Origin: a virus
Lineage: Duplodnaviria; Heunggongvirae; Uroviricota; Caudoviricetes
IMG/VR virus record: IMGVR_UViG_2667527959_000010
Location: 1-16,565 of that record
Length of the DNA: 16,565 bases
Direction: 5' to 3' (one strand)
A program made the translations under genes and the position numbers. Below, piece by piece: positions 1,709 to 16,565 of this stretch (the stretch's first letter is position 1; each line of letters begins with the position of its first letter). The notes under the pieces were generated by a model. That model was not told the DNA's origin. It made no database searches and worked only from the letters and a program-made list of their open reading frames with translations.

Positions 1709-2971
1709 ATGAGCACTTCAGCACAAAACCAATCAATCGAAAATGTATCTATCCCTGACGTCCTGAATGCCGGTATCCCGGCCATTATTCAGAACATCCG
1801 AGCCGCGCAACGCCGCGTTAGTTGTGATGACCTCACAGCACGTTTTTTTGATAATGCGGTTCAGTCAGCTGAGATGCTTCACGCACAGCTTATTGATGTT
1901 TATAACGCAGAAGCTGATAGCCATAACGACCTGGTAGATGCAGCTGAAAATATGCAGTTGGATCTCGGTCTGAAGGGTAAAGAAATTGAAGATCTTCAGC
2001 TGCAAATTGAGCATTTGAAACGCCAGCAACAGGATGCCATCGACGATGCGACGCATGACGCCAACCAGCGTGCTGATAATGCCGAACGTATAAGCATTGA
2101 GTTGGAAACAAAACTCAATGAAATGACCGCTATGGTTGAGCTGCGGAATTCACAGATTTCAACACTAAAATCTCAATATAAAGAGATCATGAAACTTGAT
2201 CCTTTTAACCTTGAGAAACGTTATAACAAAGCCAAAAGCGAGCGCCAGGAACTGCGTAAGCAGGTCGCCGACCTTAACCAACAGCTCAAAAAGGCTATTA
2301 AAGATGCAAGCGAGGCGCGCGTGGCATTTGCTAATAAAAAAGCAGAGGTTACCGAGCTGGTTAATGAAAATGCTAAATTTGCGATGCTCAAGAAGGAAAT
2401 GTATGGCATTACTGAGCGCCGTTTTCCTGCAAGCAAACTCCATCCGACGTTAGGGCAAATCTCATTCTTCCCGCGCCTCCTGGCTTATGGAATCTCATCG
2501 CCTAAAGAGTTCAATAACGAGCGTCCTTATATCGTTTCTAAGCTGGACTTTGCTTATCAGTTCTGCTGTGACATGGGCTATGCCATTGATATCCGTATCA
2601 ACGAATGGTTGATGCCAAACTTCCAGCCGTTGGCCATTTTCCGCGAGTTCCAGCCGGAAGGTTGGGTAGAGTTCTTCCATGAAATGATCTGTAAAGAGAT
2701 GGAAAGCCGCCGCCCGGAACTGGTCCGCCGTGTCGAGTGGGCGCAAGAGGTTATGTTGGCAGATGCAGAGCTACCGTTCGAACCGGAATTCATTGATGAA
2801 CTGGCCAATAAAGGGCTGCATAGCCTATTTGATGTAGTTACCCGCCGTCATGAGCAGTTGGTTGTTGAATTGGGTTTAGAAGAAACTGCGGCAAGAAGAC
2901 TTCTCGATGTTTGCTATGCACGTAGCGATGCATGGGAAAAAGAGAACGGCGGTACTATTTACGTTCGCTGA
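1709..2971 (+). CDS. Hypothetical protein, 420 aa, N-terminal coiled-coil-like region and C-terminal globular domain
   Basis: Long uninterrupted ORF followed by a strong terminator. The N-terminal ~230 aa are rich in E/K/Q/L heptad-like sequence (e.g. LQLQIEHLKRQQQ, ELRKQVADLNQQLKK); the C-terminal ~190 aa are Cys/aromatic-containing with no motif I can assign. Confidence 0.8.
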   Translation: MSTSAQNQSIENVSIPDVLNAGIPAIIQNIRAAQRRVSCDDLTARFFDNAVQSAEMLHAQLIDVYNAEADSHNDLVDAAENMQLDLGLKGKEIEDLQLQIEHLKRQQQDAIDDATHDANQRADNAERISIELETKLNEMTAMVELRNSQISTLKSQYKEIMKLDPFNLEKRYNKAKSERQELRKQVADLNQQLKKAIKDASEARVAFANKKAEVTELVNENAKFAMLKKEMYGITERRFPASKLHPTLGQISFFPRLLAYGISSPKEFNNERPYIVSKLDFAYQFCCDMGYAIDIRINEWLMPNFQPLAIFREFQPEGWVEFFHEMICKEMESRRPELVRRVEWAQEVMLADAELPFEPEFIDELANKGLHSLFDVVTRRHEQLVVELGLEETAARRLLDVCYARSDAWEKENGGTIYVR

Positions 2972-2990
2972 TAGTTACAGTGTCACTTTT

Positions 2991-3025
2991 AATGCTGGTG
3001 GAGTGCGTCCCACCAGCATTTTTTT
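2991..3025 (+). terminator. Rho-independent terminator
   Basis: 11-bp perfect stem AATGCTGGTGG/CCACCAGCATT with 8-nt loop, followed by a T-run at 3021-3025. Lies 20 nt after the stop of the 420-aa ORF. Confidence 0.7.
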
Positions 3026-3044
3026 CGTCCAATGAGGAGGGCAT

Positions 3045-3551
3045 TTGAGTATTTTCAACCAACACGCACACCATGAACGTCCGTATATCGTCATAGTTGA
3101 TATTGATGGAACAATATCAGAGGCAACTGAAGACAGACTGCATTTGCTTCCGCCACCAGGTAAAGGTGCATTAACAAAGGACTGGAACGAGTTTAATCTC
3201 GCCTGTGACACTGATACTCCCATAACTCCAGTTATTGATATTGTGCGCCAGTTATATAACGTTTACACGGTCTGGTTTGTAACCGGGCGCTGTGAGATCG
3301 CAAGGGATAAAACATGAGCCTGGCTGCGAAAGTACGTAACAAACGGGGATGAGCCTTTGCTATCTATGCGTCCTGCCACCGATGACAGAAATGACGGTCC
3401 AGCAAAGATTGATCTCCTTAAGAAAATTGGTCTAAGCAAAATTGCGTTCGCGCTGGAAGATAAGATTGAAGTGGCGCGTGTTTTCAGGCGTCACGGCGTG
3501 CTTACGTTAATGGTCAGGGAGTATGAAAACGCGCTTCTTCATCAGCAATAA
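3045..3551 (+). pseudogene. HAD-superfamily phosphatase (polynucleotide 3'-phosphatase/Pnkp-like domain) interrupted by a single in-frame TGA at 3315-3317
   Basis: ORFs 3045-3317 and 3357-3551 are in the same frame, separated only by one TGA and 13 sense codons. The joined product has HAD motif I IVIVDIDGT, motif II-like WFVTGR, and a C-terminal K/DD region resembling the T4 Pnkp phosphatase domain as recalled. TTG start with strong SD GAGGAGG (3034-3040). Confidence 0.6.
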
Positions 3552-3567
3552 TTGCTCTAATAAATCT
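3551..3567 (+). promoter_or_regulatory. C1 repressor operator (ATTGCTCTAATAAATCT)
   Basis: 16/17 match to the C1 operator consensus. Overlaps the TAA stop of the phosphatase ORF and a TTGATA -35-like hexamer (3567-3572); a GAAAAT -10-like hexamer follows at 3590-3595. Confidence 0.7.
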
Positions 3568-3589
3568 TGATATTTAAAGCAGAGAAGGT

Positions 3590-3623
3590 GAAAATAAAAA
3601 CATGCCGCAAGGGGCGCGGCATG
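3590..3623 (-). terminator. Hairpin with T-tract on the minus strand (possible terminator for leftward transcripts)
   Basis: Perfect 8-bp stem CATGCCGC/GCGGCATG (3601-3623) with 7-nt loop. On the minus strand it is followed by TTTTTATTTT; on the plus strand it is not followed by a U-tract. Confidence 0.45.
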
Positions 3624-3651
3624 TATCAAATCAATCACAGGAGCTGAAGAT

Positions 3652-3738
3652 ATGAACACGGCATTCAAAATCATTATGGCCGCGATCTATTTCTGGCTGT
3701 TCTCTATCACTTTTGGCAGCATTGTCGCGCATGGGTAA
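3652..3738 (+). CDS. Candidate small hydrophobic peptide, 28 aa (MNTAFKIIMAAIYFWLFSITFGSIVAHG)
   Basis: ATG at 3652 with SD AGGAG (3639-3643) at 8-nt spacing. Product is predicted to be a single hydrophobic helix. Too short for the supplied ORF track; sits downstream of a C1-operator-overlapped promoter-like sequence. Confidence 0.35.
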   Translation: MNTAFKIIMAAIYFWLFSITFGSIVAHG

Positions 3739-3772
3739 GGGGAGTATATTAGCCATTTGGAACCCCACGGTC

Positions 3773-3802
3773 TCTTGCGGGTTTAATTAAGAACCCGCAA
3801 GA
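3773..3802. other. Stem-loop at the hsdR 3' end (11-bp stem TCTTGCGGGTT/AACCCGCAAGA, 8-nt loop)
   Basis: Perfect inverted repeat 15 bp from the hsdR stop codon. The A-run lies 3' on the plus strand and the T-run 5' on the minus strand, so it is not a canonical intrinsic terminator in either direction. Confidence 0.4.
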
Positions 3803-3817
3803 AAAATACGAATTGGG

Positions 3818-6800
3818 CTATATTTTTCCGCCTACGCCTTTAAACTTCTCAATAAACGAGACGATTTTCTGGAAAACTGCCTGTTTTTTCGTTTTATATT
3901 GCGGATTCAACGGACTAAGTTTTGGTAATGTTTCGTTTAATTCTGTGCCATTTTCGGTGGCGTATTCGCGTTTTAAAGACGTGCGAATATAGCGTTTTGC
4001 TGCATCTTCATTAAGATTTTCTTCTTTTATCAATGCTTCTGCTTCACGTTGCTGTTCGCGTTGAGCAAACGTAAAGAATGCGTCAATGATGCTGGCTTTG
4101 TCCGGTAAATCATCCAGGTTCGTTTGCTGAATAAAATCGACCACCAGGCCCTCTTTAGCACGGTTCCCTAGGCTTGAACGAATTAAGCGTTTGACCTCTT
4201 CGATCATTTCGCCCTTGCCTTTATTTTGTCTGTTGTGTTCGAAAATCAGTCCAAGGATATAATCCAGGTTTATTTCCTGAGACTTCAGCAAATCGACCTC
4301 AAAAACTACGTCATCCCAGTCAGTGGTTGATTTCTCTTTTTTCTCAGCTTCTTTCTCACGGCGCTGCCAGTCGCGAATATCGTTATAGGCAGAACGATAA
4401 TCCTGAATCTTGCGATCAGCAGGGAGACGAATTGTTTGCAATTCAGCGAGCTTTTCATCATCCACATAATGTTCTGCTTTGAATTTTTCTACTGCAACAG
4501 GATCGCTAAGATCGATTTGTTGCAGGGCTTTCAGCGTGGCAAATTCATCATAGTTTTGCAGGATGTTCTCGGTACGCAGGTATTCACCAAACAGTTTAAC
4601 GAAGTCTTTCTTCTCTTTTTCACTTTCAATACTGGTAGGGTCAGGGAACCGTTGTTCCAGTTCTGAAACTACTGTCATGAAGCCGCGTTTAGCTTCACCA
4701 GTGGCAGCATCAGTAAAGCCTTCCATATACTCTGCATAACTCTTTTCTAAAACCACATTTTTGGTATTTTTGTCACCAAACAGCGTTATGGCATCAATAG
4801 TTGAGCGTTCCAGATCCCGGAAAGTGACGATATTACCGAAGGTTTTAGTTGCATCATAAATACGGTTGGTGCGGGAAAATGCCTGCATCAAGCCGTGAAA
4901 ACGCAGGTTTTTATCGACGAATAGCGTGTTCAATATTGGAGCATCGAAGCCAGTTAAAAACATCCCCACGACAATTAACAGATCGATATCCTGATTTTTA
5001 ACCCGCTGGGCTAAATCACGATAGTAGTTCTGAAAACCGTTACTGTCGGTGCTGAAGTTAGTTTTAAAATAGCTGTTATACTCACGAATTGCAGCATCAA
5101 GAAACTCTTTAGCACTGCTGTCCATTGCGCTGGTATCAAAAGTTTCATCGGAAATTTCACCAATGGCATTTTGTTCTTCATTGGCAGCAAAGGAGAAGAT
5201 TGTCGCAATATGCAGCGGTTTATAGGTGGCCGATTTATTAGCTGCTTCCTCTTGTAACCGTTTAAACGTCGCGTAATAGGCTTTTGCAGCATCCACGCTG
5301 CTCACTGCCAACATAGCATTAAAACCTTTTGAGCCAGGGAAGGTACGGTGGGTTTTCTGGCGGAAATTATTCAGAATATATTGCGTGATTTCCTGAATAC
5401 GCATGGGATGAAGAAACGCCTGCTGATTTTCAGCCGCACTCAGTTTTTTCTCGTCAGTTTCTGTCTCTAAAGACTTAAACTGTGGCCGCACATCGTTGTA
5501 GTCCACCTTGAATTTGAGCACTTTTTCGTCACGAATCGCATCGGTAATTACATACGAATGCAATTCACGACCAAATACGCTGGCGGTTGTTTCTGAGCCT
5601 AAGGCGTTTTCCGGGAAAATAGGGGTGCCGGTAAAACCAAACTGATAATAGCGTTTGAATTTCTTCTTCAGGTTTTTCTGCGCTTCTCCAAACTGGCTGC
5701 GGTGGCATTCATCAAATATAAACACCACTTGCTGATTATATACAGGCAGGTCGCTTTCTGCTTTCATCAGGTTATTGAGTTTCTGAATAGTAGTGACGAT
5801 AATTTTGTTATCGTCCTTATCCAGATTTCGTTTAAGGCCTGCGGTATTTTCCGAGCCGTTGACGCTGTCTGGCGAAAAACGCTGATATTCCTTCATGGTC
5901 TGGTAATCGAGGTCTTTCCTGTCGACCACGAAGAAGACTTTATCAATAAAGTCCAGCTCTGTTGCCAGACGCGCGGCTTTAAAGCTGGTGAGGGTTTTAC
6001 CAGAACCGGTAGTGTGCCAGATATACCCACCGCTTTCCGGTTTTGACCAGTTCTTCGCTGTAAAGGAGCTCTTAATTTTCCACAGAATGCGCTCGGTGGC
6101 AGCAATCTGGTACGGTCGCATCACCAGTAGCGTCTGACTGCTGTCAAAAACGCTGTAGTTCACCAGAACATTAAGCAGAGTATGTTTCTGGAAAAAGGTA
6201 GCGGTAAAATCTTTGAGGTCTTTAATCAGCGTGTTGTCTGATTTCGCCCAGTTCATGGTGAAGTCAAAACTGTTTTTATCGCGCTTTGTTGTGTTGGCAA
6301 AATAACGGGTATCGGTGCCGTTAGAAATGACAAACAGTTGCAGATACTTAAACAGGGAATTTTCGCTGTTAAAACTCTCTTTACTGTAACGATGTATCTG
6401 GTTGAAAGCCTCACGAATCGCCACGCCGCGCTTTTTCAGTTCGATTTGTACCAGTGGTAAGCCATTAACCAGGATCGTGACGTCATAACGGTTAGCATGA
6501 GAACCCGTCTGTTCAAACTGCTGGATAATCTGCACCTTATTGCGCATGAGATTCTTTTTATCTATCAAATAGATGTTCTCAAGTCGCTCGTCATCAAAAA
6601 TAAAGTCGCAAATATAGTCGATATGGATTTTACGGGTCTTATCCAGAATGCCATCGCTCGGGTTGTCCAGATACTGCTCCGTGAAACGCCGCCACTCGCT
6701 GTCATTAAACACCACACCATTGAGGCTCTGAAGCTGTTCCCGAACATTGGACAGCATAGCCGACTGAGATTTTACGGATATAAATTCATAGCCCTGATTC

Positions 6801-6934
6801 CGCAGGTCCTGAATCAGTTCACGTTCCAGGTCCGATTCGCTCTGGTAGCTGTCGCCTGTTTGCTCAGCTTTGATGTACTTATCAAGGACGATAAAGTTAT
6901 TGGATTCAGCAATGGTGTGTGTTTGATGAGTCAT
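3818..6934 (-). CDS. hsdR: Type I restriction enzyme R subunit (HsdR), type IC-like
   Basis: 1038 aa. Walker A TGSGKT, DEAH-box FDECHR, and an N-terminal PD-(D/E)xK-like nuclease motif (D...IELKK). Length matches EcoR124I HsdR as recalled. SD AAGGA upstream of the ATG at 6934. Confidence 0.95.
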
Positions 6935-7055
6935 AGCGCATCCTTTGTGCCGCCTGGCAAGGGCCGGAAGGGCGTTAAGAGTGACTTCCGGCGCGTAAAA
7001 AATAGTCTATATACAGACCGGGTGTTAAGGTGGCCCGGTCGGTAGCAATGGTCAA

Positions 7056-8312
7056 TTAATTACTGACAGTTTCAGGTGTTGGGAAACTGAACAGTAAATC
7101 ACGATAGTACTCGTATTGTTTCTGGCGCAACTCGATTTCACGCGGAAGACCTTCGGTGATGGAGTTGGTCAGGGTGTCGAATTTATCGAGCAGAGCAGAT
7201 ATTCGCTCTTGTTTCTGTTTATCAGGCAATGGCACTGGTAATGTTTTTATAATATCTGCATTCAAGTTACTGACCGACCCGCTATTGATTTTACTTTCCC
7301 AATAATTTTTCACCTTTTTTGATGAAAGATAGTGATACAGATAATCAGCATTTAATTTTTCACCAAAATTGCTGATTGATGCCCATCCATCATGGATAGC
7401 TCCGGTTATCCTTAAAATATATGGTCTGCCAAAGCTCATAGAGTTAGAAATGACGAAATCACCGGGGTTCAAGATTCGCGATTTTTGGGCACCCTCTGCA
7501 GTTATTTTTTGTAAGGTTTTGTCAATGTATTTAGAGCCGGGTATAGTATCTCCGATTTTAATCCATGGGATACCATTTCCTTGTTCAGTAAGATAATTAA
7601 CAATTGGTCTGGGGGATGCCCCTCGTTGTATTTTGGCTACTTCTCCCAATGCCTTCCACTCAACCTCACCCTCATCAAAACTCAGCAATTGGTCGCGATA
7701 GTAGTTGTACTGTTTTTTACGCATGTTAAGCTCAGCGGTAAGCTCAGCGGTAAGTGCAGTAAATTTATCCAGAATCCGAACGATTTCAGACTGGATGGCA
7801 AGGGATTTTTCCGGATTATCCGGGCAAGGGATTGGGATGAGTAGTTTTGACATCAATGCATTTGAGCTTAGGTTCGGTTGTGCTCCGCCCCCGGCGAGGA
7901 TATAAATAGTCTCTGTATTTAACAATAAAAAATGGTATAAATAATTATTGTTTAGAATATTTTCTTTGGGTATGAATTTCCCAACCCGTTGGTTAAGATA
8001 ACATTTTGTTCCTTTTTTATAAATTCCTACCTTTCCTGTAGTGGCACCTGACATTGCAATCAATATATTTCCCATAGATACCTCAAAGGAGGATAAATCT
8101 TCCTTGTAATCATTTAGTGAAAAGTATTTCACCTCATCTAAGTCAACATTAAATCCATCTATATTTGTGATTCTGACTATCGGTAACCCAGTTTCTTTAA
8201 ATAAGCTGCTTTTAAATGCAAATCCATTTTTAAAATCACAAACATCCTTCAAGGGTTTCCACTCAACCTCAACCCCATCCAGCAATTTTTCCAGATAACT
8301 TAACTCGCTCAT
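7056..8312 (-). CDS. hsdS: Type I restriction-modification specificity subunit (HsdS), type IC-like
   Basis: 418 aa with two variable target-recognition regions separated by the conserved central region ...[33 protein letters not shown], and a C-terminal conserved repeat ...[36 protein letters not shown], as in the EcoR124I/EcoDXXI family. Confidence 0.95.
7730..7753 (-). repeat. Tandem 12-bp repeat (2 copies) encoding TAEL-TAEL in the HsdS central conserved region
   Basis: GCTCAGCGGTAA x2 on the plus strand, which is ACCGCTGAGCTT x2 in the coding sense. A degenerate partial third unit follows. Confidence 0.8.
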
Positions 8313-9871
8313 TTTTGCACCTCGCAGCCTTCAATTTCAGCCACAATTGCATCAATATCTTTACGCAACTGGTCGATTTTGCTGACCGTGGTTTTCAGCT
8401 CAGCATTCAGCTCACCGATATCGATAATTTCGCGGTTATCTTTCGCTTCCACATAGCTGCTCACCGACAGGTTATAGTCATTCGCGACAACGGCTTCAAA
8501 CGCGACAGATTTTGCCAGATGAGCAACATCTTCCTTGCTGGCAAATACCTGCATAATTTTTTCTATATGGGCATCGGTCAGAATGTTGTTGTTAGTCTCT
8601 TTTTTGAACAGTTCGCTGGCATCAATAAACTGAACTTTGGTATCCGTTTTATGTTTAGACAGCACCAGAATATTTACGGCAATGGTGGTGCCAAAGAACA
8701 GGTTCGGTGCGAGTGAAATCACGGTTTCGACATAGTTATTGTCGACCAGATACTGACGGATTTTCTGCTCCGCGCCGCCACGGTAAAAAATACCCGGGAA
8801 GCAGACAATCGCGGCGCGACCTTTGGCCGAAAGATAGTTCAGCGCATGTAGTACAAACGCAAAGTCAGCTTTGGATTTGGGGGCCAGAACGCCAGCCGGG
8901 GCAAAACGTTCATCGTTAATCAGCGTCGGGTCATCGCTGCCAATCCATTTCACCGAATACGGTGGGTTAGATACGATGGCGTCAAACGGTTTTTCATCTC
9001 TGAAGTGCGGCTCAGTCAGCGTATTGCCCAGCTTGATATCAAACTTGTCGTAGTTGATATTGTGCAAAAACATGTTCATACGCGCCAGGTTATAGGTCGT
9101 ATGGTTGATTTCCTGACCGAAAAAGCCTTCTTCGATGATATGGTTATCAAACTGTTTTTTCGCCTGCAACAACAGTGAGCCGGAACCCGCTGCCGGGTCG
9201 TAGATTTTGTTAACGCTGGTCTGCCCGTGCATAGCCAGTTGTGCAATCAGCTTGGAGACGTGCTGCGGTGTAAAGAACTCACCGCCTGACTTACCGGCAT
9301 TTGCCGCATAGTTAGAAATCAGGAACTCATAGGCATCACCGAACAGGTCAATCTGATGTTCGTTGAAGTCACCAAGTTTTAACCCTTCAACCCCTTTCAG
9401 AACCGCAGCCAGGCGGGCATTTTTATCTTTAACGGTGTTACCCAGGCGGTTACTGGTGGTATCGAAATCAGCAAACAAACCTTTGATGTCAGCTTCTGAA
9501 GGATAACCGTAAGCAGAACTTTCGATAGCAACGAAGATGCTGTTTAAATCTGCATTCAGTCTGTCATTAGTATTTGCTTTCGCAGCTACGTTGCAGAAAA
9601 GCTGACTGGGGTAGATGAAGTAGCCTTTAGTTTTGATGGCATCGTCTTTAATGTCATCAGTAATTACGCTGTCATCCAGTTTCGCATAACAGATACTGTC
9701 ATCACCGGCTTCAATATAGCTGGAAAAATTTTCGCTGATAAAACGGTAGAAAAGTGCGCCCAGAACGTATTGCTTAAAATCCCATCCATCGACCGAACCC
9801 CTGACATCGTTAGCAATTTGCCAGATTTGACGATGAAGCTCTGCACGTTGTTGAATACTTGTCATTTTCAT
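8309..9871 (-). CDS. hsdM: Type I restriction-modification N6-adenine DNA methyltransferase subunit (HsdM)
   Basis: 520 aa. AdoMet-binding motif [10 protein letters not shown] and catalytic motif NPPY ([10 protein letters not shown]). Its stop overlaps the hsdS start by 4 bp. N-terminus [13 protein letters not shown] matches my recollection of EcoR124I HsdM. Confidence 0.95.
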
Positions 9872-16404: not shown

Positions 16405-16565
16405 AATTATGCCTCACTGTATTGACAACACAGAGCCTGAAGCTCTGACCTACTGTTTCACCCATGATCCATGCTGGGGTAATCTAACAACATTGCGCTG
16501 TGTGTAAGGGAAGGTGCGAACAAGTTCCTGATATGAGATCATCATATTCATCCGGAGCGCATCCC

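Follow-up and report, generated by a model that had tools for sequence, protein, structure and literature searches.

A premature TGA codon interrupts the pap gene of a P1-like phage-plasmid

The window, by which we mean the whole stretch of 16,565 nucleotides that was analysed, carries at positions 3045-3551 of its plus strand a gene that its sequence and its position identify as pap of a P1-like (IncY) phage-plasmid. Very probably, this known gene has become null through a single C to T change and is a loss-of-function pseudogene, tolerated and inherited within a small clade of plasmids. It must be noted that the finding is an ordinary one: a known gene of bacteriophage P1 with a simple nonsense mutation, already flagged as a pseudogene in public annotation. 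The annotation of the region is settled as one pseudogene, and not as two small genes, an error or a recoding site, and the speculative link between Pap and a type IC or PrrC system is removed.

The pap locus and its reading frame

Translation of 3045-3551 gave one frame of 168 sense codons, in which codon 91 is the only internal stop (TGA, 3315-3317) and which is closed by a terminal TAA at 3549-3551. The list of open reading frames splits the gene into 3045-3317 (90 aa, TTG start) and an in-frame ORF downstream. The initial annotation had described two ORFs in the same frame, parted by this one TGA, as the halves of one gene; the translation agrees, and the homologues are intact at 168 aa. 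The features of the locus are as follows.

2991..3027, plus strand: intrinsic terminator after pmgS, with an 11-bp GC-rich stem, an 8-nt loop and a T-run (dG -23.4 kcal/mol, z -3.04)
3034..3041, plus strand: Shine-Dalgarno sequence of pap, GAGGAGGG, read from the sequence, 3 nt before the TTG and identical in P1 and P7
3045..3317, plus strand: 5' part of pap, running from the TTG start through 90 sense codons to the premature TGA and encoding the 90-aa fragment P0029
3315..3317, plus strand: premature stop TGA, which is CGA (Arg91) in P1, P7, pNT1F10 and p1919D3 (C>T at 3315)
3318..3551, plus strand: 3' part of pap, now untranslated, with 77 sense codons and the TAA; it holds motifs III and IV
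3551..3567, plus strand: C1 repressor operator Op88/OpmgT, ATTGCTCTAATAAATCT, annotated in P1 (3651-3667 of the locus compared); it overlaps the last base of the pap stop

An 801-bp query around pap matched 19 phage and 945 plasmid records, all of them P1-like elements (Punavirus, and IncY/p0111 phage-plasmids of E. coli, Salmonella, Klebsiella and Shigella). The CDS matched in P1 (NC_005856) and in P7 bears the name pap (P1_gp094, YP_006560.1, and H7U13_gp069, respectively) and has 168 codons; the TTG at 3045 is the start annotated for P1 pap, and P7 uses the same one. Over the 801 bp the window is 94.5% identical to P1 and 96.8% to P7, the Shine-Dalgarno sequence is shared, and in all three the locus runs in the order pmgS, terminator, pap and Op88. 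The window gene belongs to the P1 pap group by identity and position, and its frame of 168 codons is broken by the TGA at codon 91, which makes it a pseudogene member. It differs from P1 and P7 pap in this codon (TGA vs CGA), in four substitutions specific to its lineage (K6Q, Q10H, F71Y, and A102D) and in the downstream neighbour, which is a type IC hsdR in the window, pmgT in P1 and upf86.8 in P7. The product is called 'putative P1 acid phosphatase' in the P1 record and '3'-phosphatase' in that of P7, both names resting on homology. The initial annotation had described the gene and named its family correctly, but missed both the name pap and the existing pseudogene annotation.

The DNA alignment shows CGA at codon 91 in P1 and P7 and a T in place of the C at 3315 in the window. 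The closest intact relatives, pNT1F10-94k and p1919D3-2, also have CGA at this codon; they share the layout pmgS-pap-hsdR with the window and encode an intact 168-aa '3'-phosphatase' (WP_097475762.1). Given that P1, P7 and the closest intact plasmids all read CGA, the TGA is ascribed to one C>T transition, and the nonsense pseudogene was the right choice among the three options that had been proposed for this site. A chance pair of ORFs is ruled out because the joined frame has 94-96% protein identity to intact 168-aa Pap. CGA occurs only once in pap, at codon 91, and this codon is among the 11 single-transition routes to a stop (55 counting all one-step routes). Dcm-driven deamination was considered as the source of the change and rejected, as the C at 3315 lies outside the nearest CCWGG (3319-3323). 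A separate functional C-terminal product was also rejected: the 61-aa ORF that gene callers start at the ATG at 3366 has no Shine-Dalgarno sequence and lacks motifs I and II.

With regard to expression, the initial annotation had noted a strong Shine-Dalgarno sequence and, directly after a strong terminator, no room for a promoter, and both observations hold. In the scan the terminator stem occupies 2991-3020 and is followed by the T-run (z calculated against shuffles); it is kept in P1 and P7 save for one extra T in the loop. From the T-run to the start of pap there are 17 nt, and scanning the plus strand from 2700 to 3045 did not find any sigma-70-like site. The P1 annotation does not list a promoter for pap; going upstream, the first one listed is PpmgR, which C1 controls. 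A preprint on the P1vir transcriptome groups pap with pmgS by expression behaviour. Most likely, pap would be expressed from the C1-controlled promoter of the pmgR-pmgS operon, by transcripts that read through the pmgS terminator.

Downstream of pap, a type I hsdR-hsdS-hsdM cassette (3818-9871, minus strand) stands in place of pmgT...humD. HsdR (3818-6934) aligns end to end with the nearly identical HsdR of EcoR124I (2w00; 2281 bits) and has an EcoR124_C domain, while HsdS and HsdM were confirmed by Pfam and PADLOC. The closeness of HsdR to EcoR124I HsdR and the adjacent hsdS and hsdM place the cassette in type IC (EcoR124 family), as had been proposed from the sequence. The absence of prrC had been proposed too: the gap between hsdR and hsdS (7056-8312) measures 121 bp (6935-7055) and contains no ORF, and all other large ORFs of the window are accounted for, so that a prr-type locus is not present. 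In P1-like elements the variable region past pap is known as 'region 8' (PMC9603915), and a type I R-M substitution has been described in 'RD-5, between pap and lxr' (PMC6906374). In addition, the P1 record points out a match between the sequence just past pap and the DNA found downstream of two hsd loci, EcoDXXI and R124/3. That pap and hsdR are adjacent in the window is explained by the position of the cassette, which occupies the variable region starting right after pap.

Between pap and the cassette, positions 3551-3817 retain Op88 and the P1 pmgT promoter region, although pmgT itself is gone. Transcription from this region would now pass a terminator of the minus strand (3624-3600) and run into hsdR, which is convergent, from its 3' end. 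An ORF for a hydrophobic peptide of 28 aa with a good Shine-Dalgarno sequence (3652-3738, MNTAFKIIMAAIYFWLFSITFGSIVAHG) lies between Op88 and hsdR. In the record of phage SJ46, a feature named 'membrane protein' is listed under the 801-bp match that spans this region.

The predicted phosphatase and its truncated product

Family searches were performed with Pap in which Arg was restored at codon 91. On Pfam PF25109, HAD_PNKP (Polynucleotide kinase PNKP phosphatase domain), the protein scored 47.2 bits (E 3.3e-12), above the curated gathering threshold of 27.6, and the same domain is present, according to precomputed annotation, in all full-length Pap homologues. NCBIfam returned no family for Pap. 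Among PHROGs it matched polynucleotide-kinase families, the match to phrog_505 covering the C-terminal phosphatase half (156-292 of 295). The PDB search retrieved Pnkp1 (4xrp) and, when run as a profile, also T4 Pnkp (5uj0 and 1ltq). The AlphaFold model was of moderate quality (pLDDT 67), with the N-terminal 60 residues, about a third of the protein, poorly predicted; with this model, the best Foldseek matches were 4xrp (E 2.5e-6) and 5uj0 (3.7e-6), followed by 2ia5 and 1ltq. In the bifunctional enzymes matched among PHROGs and in the PDB, the aligned part is the phosphatase half only.

The initial annotation had recognized, in a joined product of about 168 aa, a motif I of the type DxDGT, which is found as DIDGT at residues 19-23. 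The HAD motifs, invariant in an alignment of ten homologues down to 56% identity, are located as follows.

3099..3113, plus strand: HAD motif I, D19-I-D21-G-T23, with the nucleophile Asp; invariant in homologues
3282..3290, plus strand: HAD motif II, T80-G-R82; T80 and R82 invariant, aligned to VVSGR of T4 Pnkp (1ltq/5uj0)
3393..3407, plus strand: HAD motif III region, D117-G-P-A-K121, past the stop; D117 and K121 invariant, aligned to RKDDVVK of T4 Pnkp
3456..3461, plus strand: HAD motif IV, E138-D139, past the stop; invariant, aligned to DD of Pnkp1 and T4 Pnkp

The repaired protein contains the four catalytic motifs of HAD phosphatases, namely I (DxDxT), II (S/T), III (K) and IV (an acidic pair). 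The nearest known systems are T4 polynucleotide kinase/phosphatase (PseT; 1ltq, 2ia5, and 5uj0) and Pnkp1 (4xrp), which have the HAD fold, are the best structural matches to Pap and share PF25109 with it. Their motifs I (DxDxT), II (S/T-G-R), III (D-x3-K) and the acidic IV all align with those of Pap, but identity is only ~22-28% and motif IV is E-D in Pap instead of D-D. Unlike T4 Pnkp, Pap has no N-terminal P-loop 5'-kinase: it is only 168 aa long, without a Walker A motif (G-x4-G-K-[ST]), and the window does not contain an associated RNA ligase gene. By homology, repaired Pap is a Pnkp-type HAD phosphatase that stands alone, and a predicted 3'-phosphatase. The likeness to the 3'-phosphatase of T4 Pnkp that had been proposed from the letters is borne out by Pfam, PHROG, the PDB profile and Foldseek, with Pnkp1 and the T4 Pnkp phosphatase retrieved by the profile search and ranked first by the structure search of the joined protein, and with the phosphatase module alone represented.

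In this plasmid lineage, the change at 3315 turned the only CGA codon of pap into TGA, so that translation would stop after 90 residues, just beyond motif II. The residues encoded 3' of the stop include the invariant W93, R109, D113, R115, D117, K121, E138, D139, and K140. The 90-aa product should be inactive, because motifs III (D117/K121) and IV (E138-D139) and many invariant residues follow codon 91; approximately half of the Rossmann-like core would be missing as well, and the fragment is expected to be catalytically dead. Most likely, the TGA allele of pap is null.

Spread of the TGA allele and other losses of pap

The TGA is a true inherited allele of a small and young clade of near-identical plasmids. 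The probe used for the allele was a 31-mer in which the T fell inside every possible 28-nt seed. The TGA 31-mer occurred in only two plasmid records, and a search of 5,426 complete E. coli genomes gave this same pair; the two come from assemblies of E. coli AW1.7 that were produced separately (GCF_018085225.1 and GCF_020388055.1). The CGA 31-mer was present in 291 plasmid records. In RefSeq, the AW1.7 genes J7886_RS24295 (pAW1.7_1, NZ_CP072540) and KD735_RS24695 (NZ_CP073625) are annotated as CDS '3'-phosphatase', pseudo, with the remark 'internal stop', the equivalent of 3045-3551 being treated as a single unit. Their pap is identical to that of the window, including the TGA, and the flanking genes are the same, whereas the AW1.7 plasmid shows four SNPs elsewhere in ~8.6 kb and, between IS26 and ppp, contains 1.45 kb missing from the window.

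The exact 90-aa product was found on 95 contigs (NCBI, ENA and Logan) and in 145 blocks of the assembly index. At least five haplotypes were distinguished (four contig loci, AW1.7 and the window), all with TGA and separated by 1-8 SNPs over ~6 kb. The initial annotation had considered a recent nonsense mutation; the allele is indeed young, but it is common to this small clade and not private to one isolate. Four contigs from different metagenomic/SRA samples (L013-L016) end at 1771-1772, which are the first one or two bases of codon 91 (C/CG); these ends may reflect a break in the assembly graph where the samples themselves are polymorphic.

Between the window and P1, pap shows 22 synonymous and 7 non-synonymous codon differences, and the gene family is under purifying selection as judged from sequence comparison. 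The changes specific to the window lineage comprise the four non-synonymous ones listed above and two synonymous ones, which fits relaxed constraint, the counts being too small for a formal test. In addition, haplotype L007 has A120E (equivalent to window 3403), a substitution of the residue preceding the motif III lysine, within the half of the gene that is no longer translated, and this would fit decay after the stop arose. P1 pap was non-essential by CRISPRi, with an efficiency of plating of 0.77 (PMC10695390), and also in an earlier study, as cited in that paper. Loss of pap would be tolerated since the gene is dispensable for P1 growth, and we infer that such loss is neutral.

Broken pap alleles were also found on other backbones. 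A 90-aa pap product (P0031) differing from the window pap by 20 of 507 nt is encoded in L012:1501-2007 and L017:771-1277 (Logan; SRR24475009 and ERR8007811), and it results from the same change of Arg91 from CGA to TGA. Its context is P1-type: hsd is missing, pmgT follows the gene, and the bases that flank the stop differ from those of the window on either side. This second TGA allele was absent from complete plasmids and from complete E. coli genomes. The comparison identifies it as an independent occurrence of R91*; gene conversion from the window lineage was considered as its source and rejected, given the flanks (ACC-TGA...CGG vs ACA-TGA...CGA) and the 3.9% divergence of the backbone. The 96-aa products P0043 and P0044, in 107 index blocks, come from a pap that is cut after codon 96 by an IS1 end. 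In L018-L021 (NCBI drafts GCA_963281195.1 and others) the cut is seen at ~1786-1800, with the IS1 terminal repeat and an adjoining autotransporter gene. Homology searches also returned many further truncated pap products, and frameshift, deletion and fusion alleles exist. P0031 and P0043/P0044 have lost the C-terminal half of pap, as has the window allele, but they arose in independent events on divergent backbones (without hsd in the one case, with IS1 and the autotransporter gene in the other). The intact 168-aa Pap cluster has 2547 member sequences, and intact pap is by far the commonest state. At the population level, pap shows repeated inactivation, in two cases through the identical CGA>TGA and in one through IS1, and the null alleles could serve as a natural resource for studying the role of Pap in P1.

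Alternative readings and the ends of the window

Two other explanations of the TGA had been raised in the initial annotation, and neither stood. As the difference is a single base, it might be a sequencing or assembly error, the real codon being CGA and pap being intact. This is rejected because the two separate AW1.7 assemblies and many contigs of other runs have TGA: contigs of at least four further sequencing runs, mutually 1-8 SNPs apart, carry it, as do all five haplotypes, and 95 contigs of NCBI, ENA and Logan encode exactly this truncated product, which leaves an error a practically negligible probability. Leaky or programmed decoding of the UGA, with near-cognate Trp or selenocysteine, would instead give a reduced amount of full-length functional Pap, the gene being down-tuned and not dead. 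Of the stop codons, UGA is the leakiest in E. coli, distant homologues vary at residue 91 (L/I/T), the frame past the stop is still open and nearly unchanged, and the same stop recurs independently. However, basal readthrough usually amounts to a few percent or below, and the downstream half has acquired non-synonymous changes (A102D, and A120E in L007). No stable hairpin was found 3' of the UGA: shuffled sequences fold at least as well as the 69 nt that begin at the stop (MFE -12.4 kcal/mol, z +1.16), which also applies to the equivalent region of P7, and Rfam gave no match within the window at gathering thresholds. The flanks of the stop are those of ordinary CGA-bearing genes, which argues that nothing there has evolved for recoding; a programmed site would combine a 3' RNA structure with a conserved UGA, and the homologues read CGA. 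In attention to the above, functional readthrough is very unlikely. Since UGA is leaky and residue 91 is not conserved, a trace of Trp91 readthrough product is conceivable and could be active.

A null allele of pap being the preferred reading, it must be considered whether its loss was favoured in some hosts or plasmid backgrounds, so that null alleles recur and spread by selection. The identical CGA>TGA on a second backbone, 3.9% divergent, without hsd and with another base 5' of the stop, points in this direction and could mean that this change is favoured rather than neutral; the IS1-truncated allele is widespread (107 index blocks), further frameshift, deletion and fusion alleles exist, and the window allele is on 95 contigs. 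A repeated hit is, however, unsurprising, given the thousands of sequenced P1-like elements and the fact that codon 91 is the only CGA and offers one of just 11 single transitions that create a stop. Moreover, intact pap dominates (the cluster of 2547 members, and the CGA 31-mer in 291 plasmids), and the gene borders on a known hot spot of insertion, which would explain IS hits without selection. Adaptive loss is thus an unlikely explanation of these alleles, and that pap is under recurrent selection for inactivation across P1-like phage-plasmids is, if anything, slightly more doubtful. If it were true, a stand-alone 3'-phosphatase of the Pnkp type would be costly in some hosts, for instance by removing 3'-phosphate ends needed by RtcB-type RNA repair of the host, or, alternatively, a leaky UGA would be used to down-tune the dose of Pap. 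The initial annotation had found a Pnkp-type phosphatase notable in an element with a type IC system, and the corresponding reading is that Pap acts as a counter-defence partner of this system or as an antidote to a PrrC-type anticodon nuclease, its loss being tied to the lack of prrC. PrrC lies within a type IC locus, the repair of PrrC-cleaved tRNA in T4 involves Pnkp-type phosphatases, and pap and hsdR are neighbours in the window. Nevertheless, pap occupies the same place in P1 and P7, both without a type IC locus there, and is a backbone gene with or without hsd, the cassette lying in a known variable region that begins after pap. Furthermore, the closest hsd-bearing relatives have intact pap and the same nonsense allele exists without hsd. 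T4-type tRNA repair requires a kinase and a ligase, and Pap has neither a kinase domain nor a Walker A, there being no RNA ligase gene in the window; PADLOC models gave no defence-system match for Pap. The functional link does not hold up under this evidence, and we regard it as even less probable than readthrough. The reading we retain is that of a dispensable backbone gene inactivated by a nonsense mutation.

Elsewhere in the window the P1 backbone is represented by ppp, pmgQ, pmgR, pmgS, phd/doc, DUF968/pdcA, lpa, pacA, pacB, and c1. Positions 1-59 are IS26 terminal sequence (...TTTGCAACAGTGCC) abutting ppp at 60, so that the native start of ppp is lost and the ORF at 47-709 begins inside the IS end. 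In the AW1.7 plasmid, the additional 1.45 kb located between IS26 and ppp contain two pmg genes. The left end of the window looks like the product of an IS26-mediated adjacent deletion. At the other end, most related plasmids cease to match at 16508, and the terminal stretch 16509-16565 (GGAAGGTGCGAACAAGTTCCTGATATGAGATCAT...) presumably resembles a terminal inverted repeat of the IS5 family.
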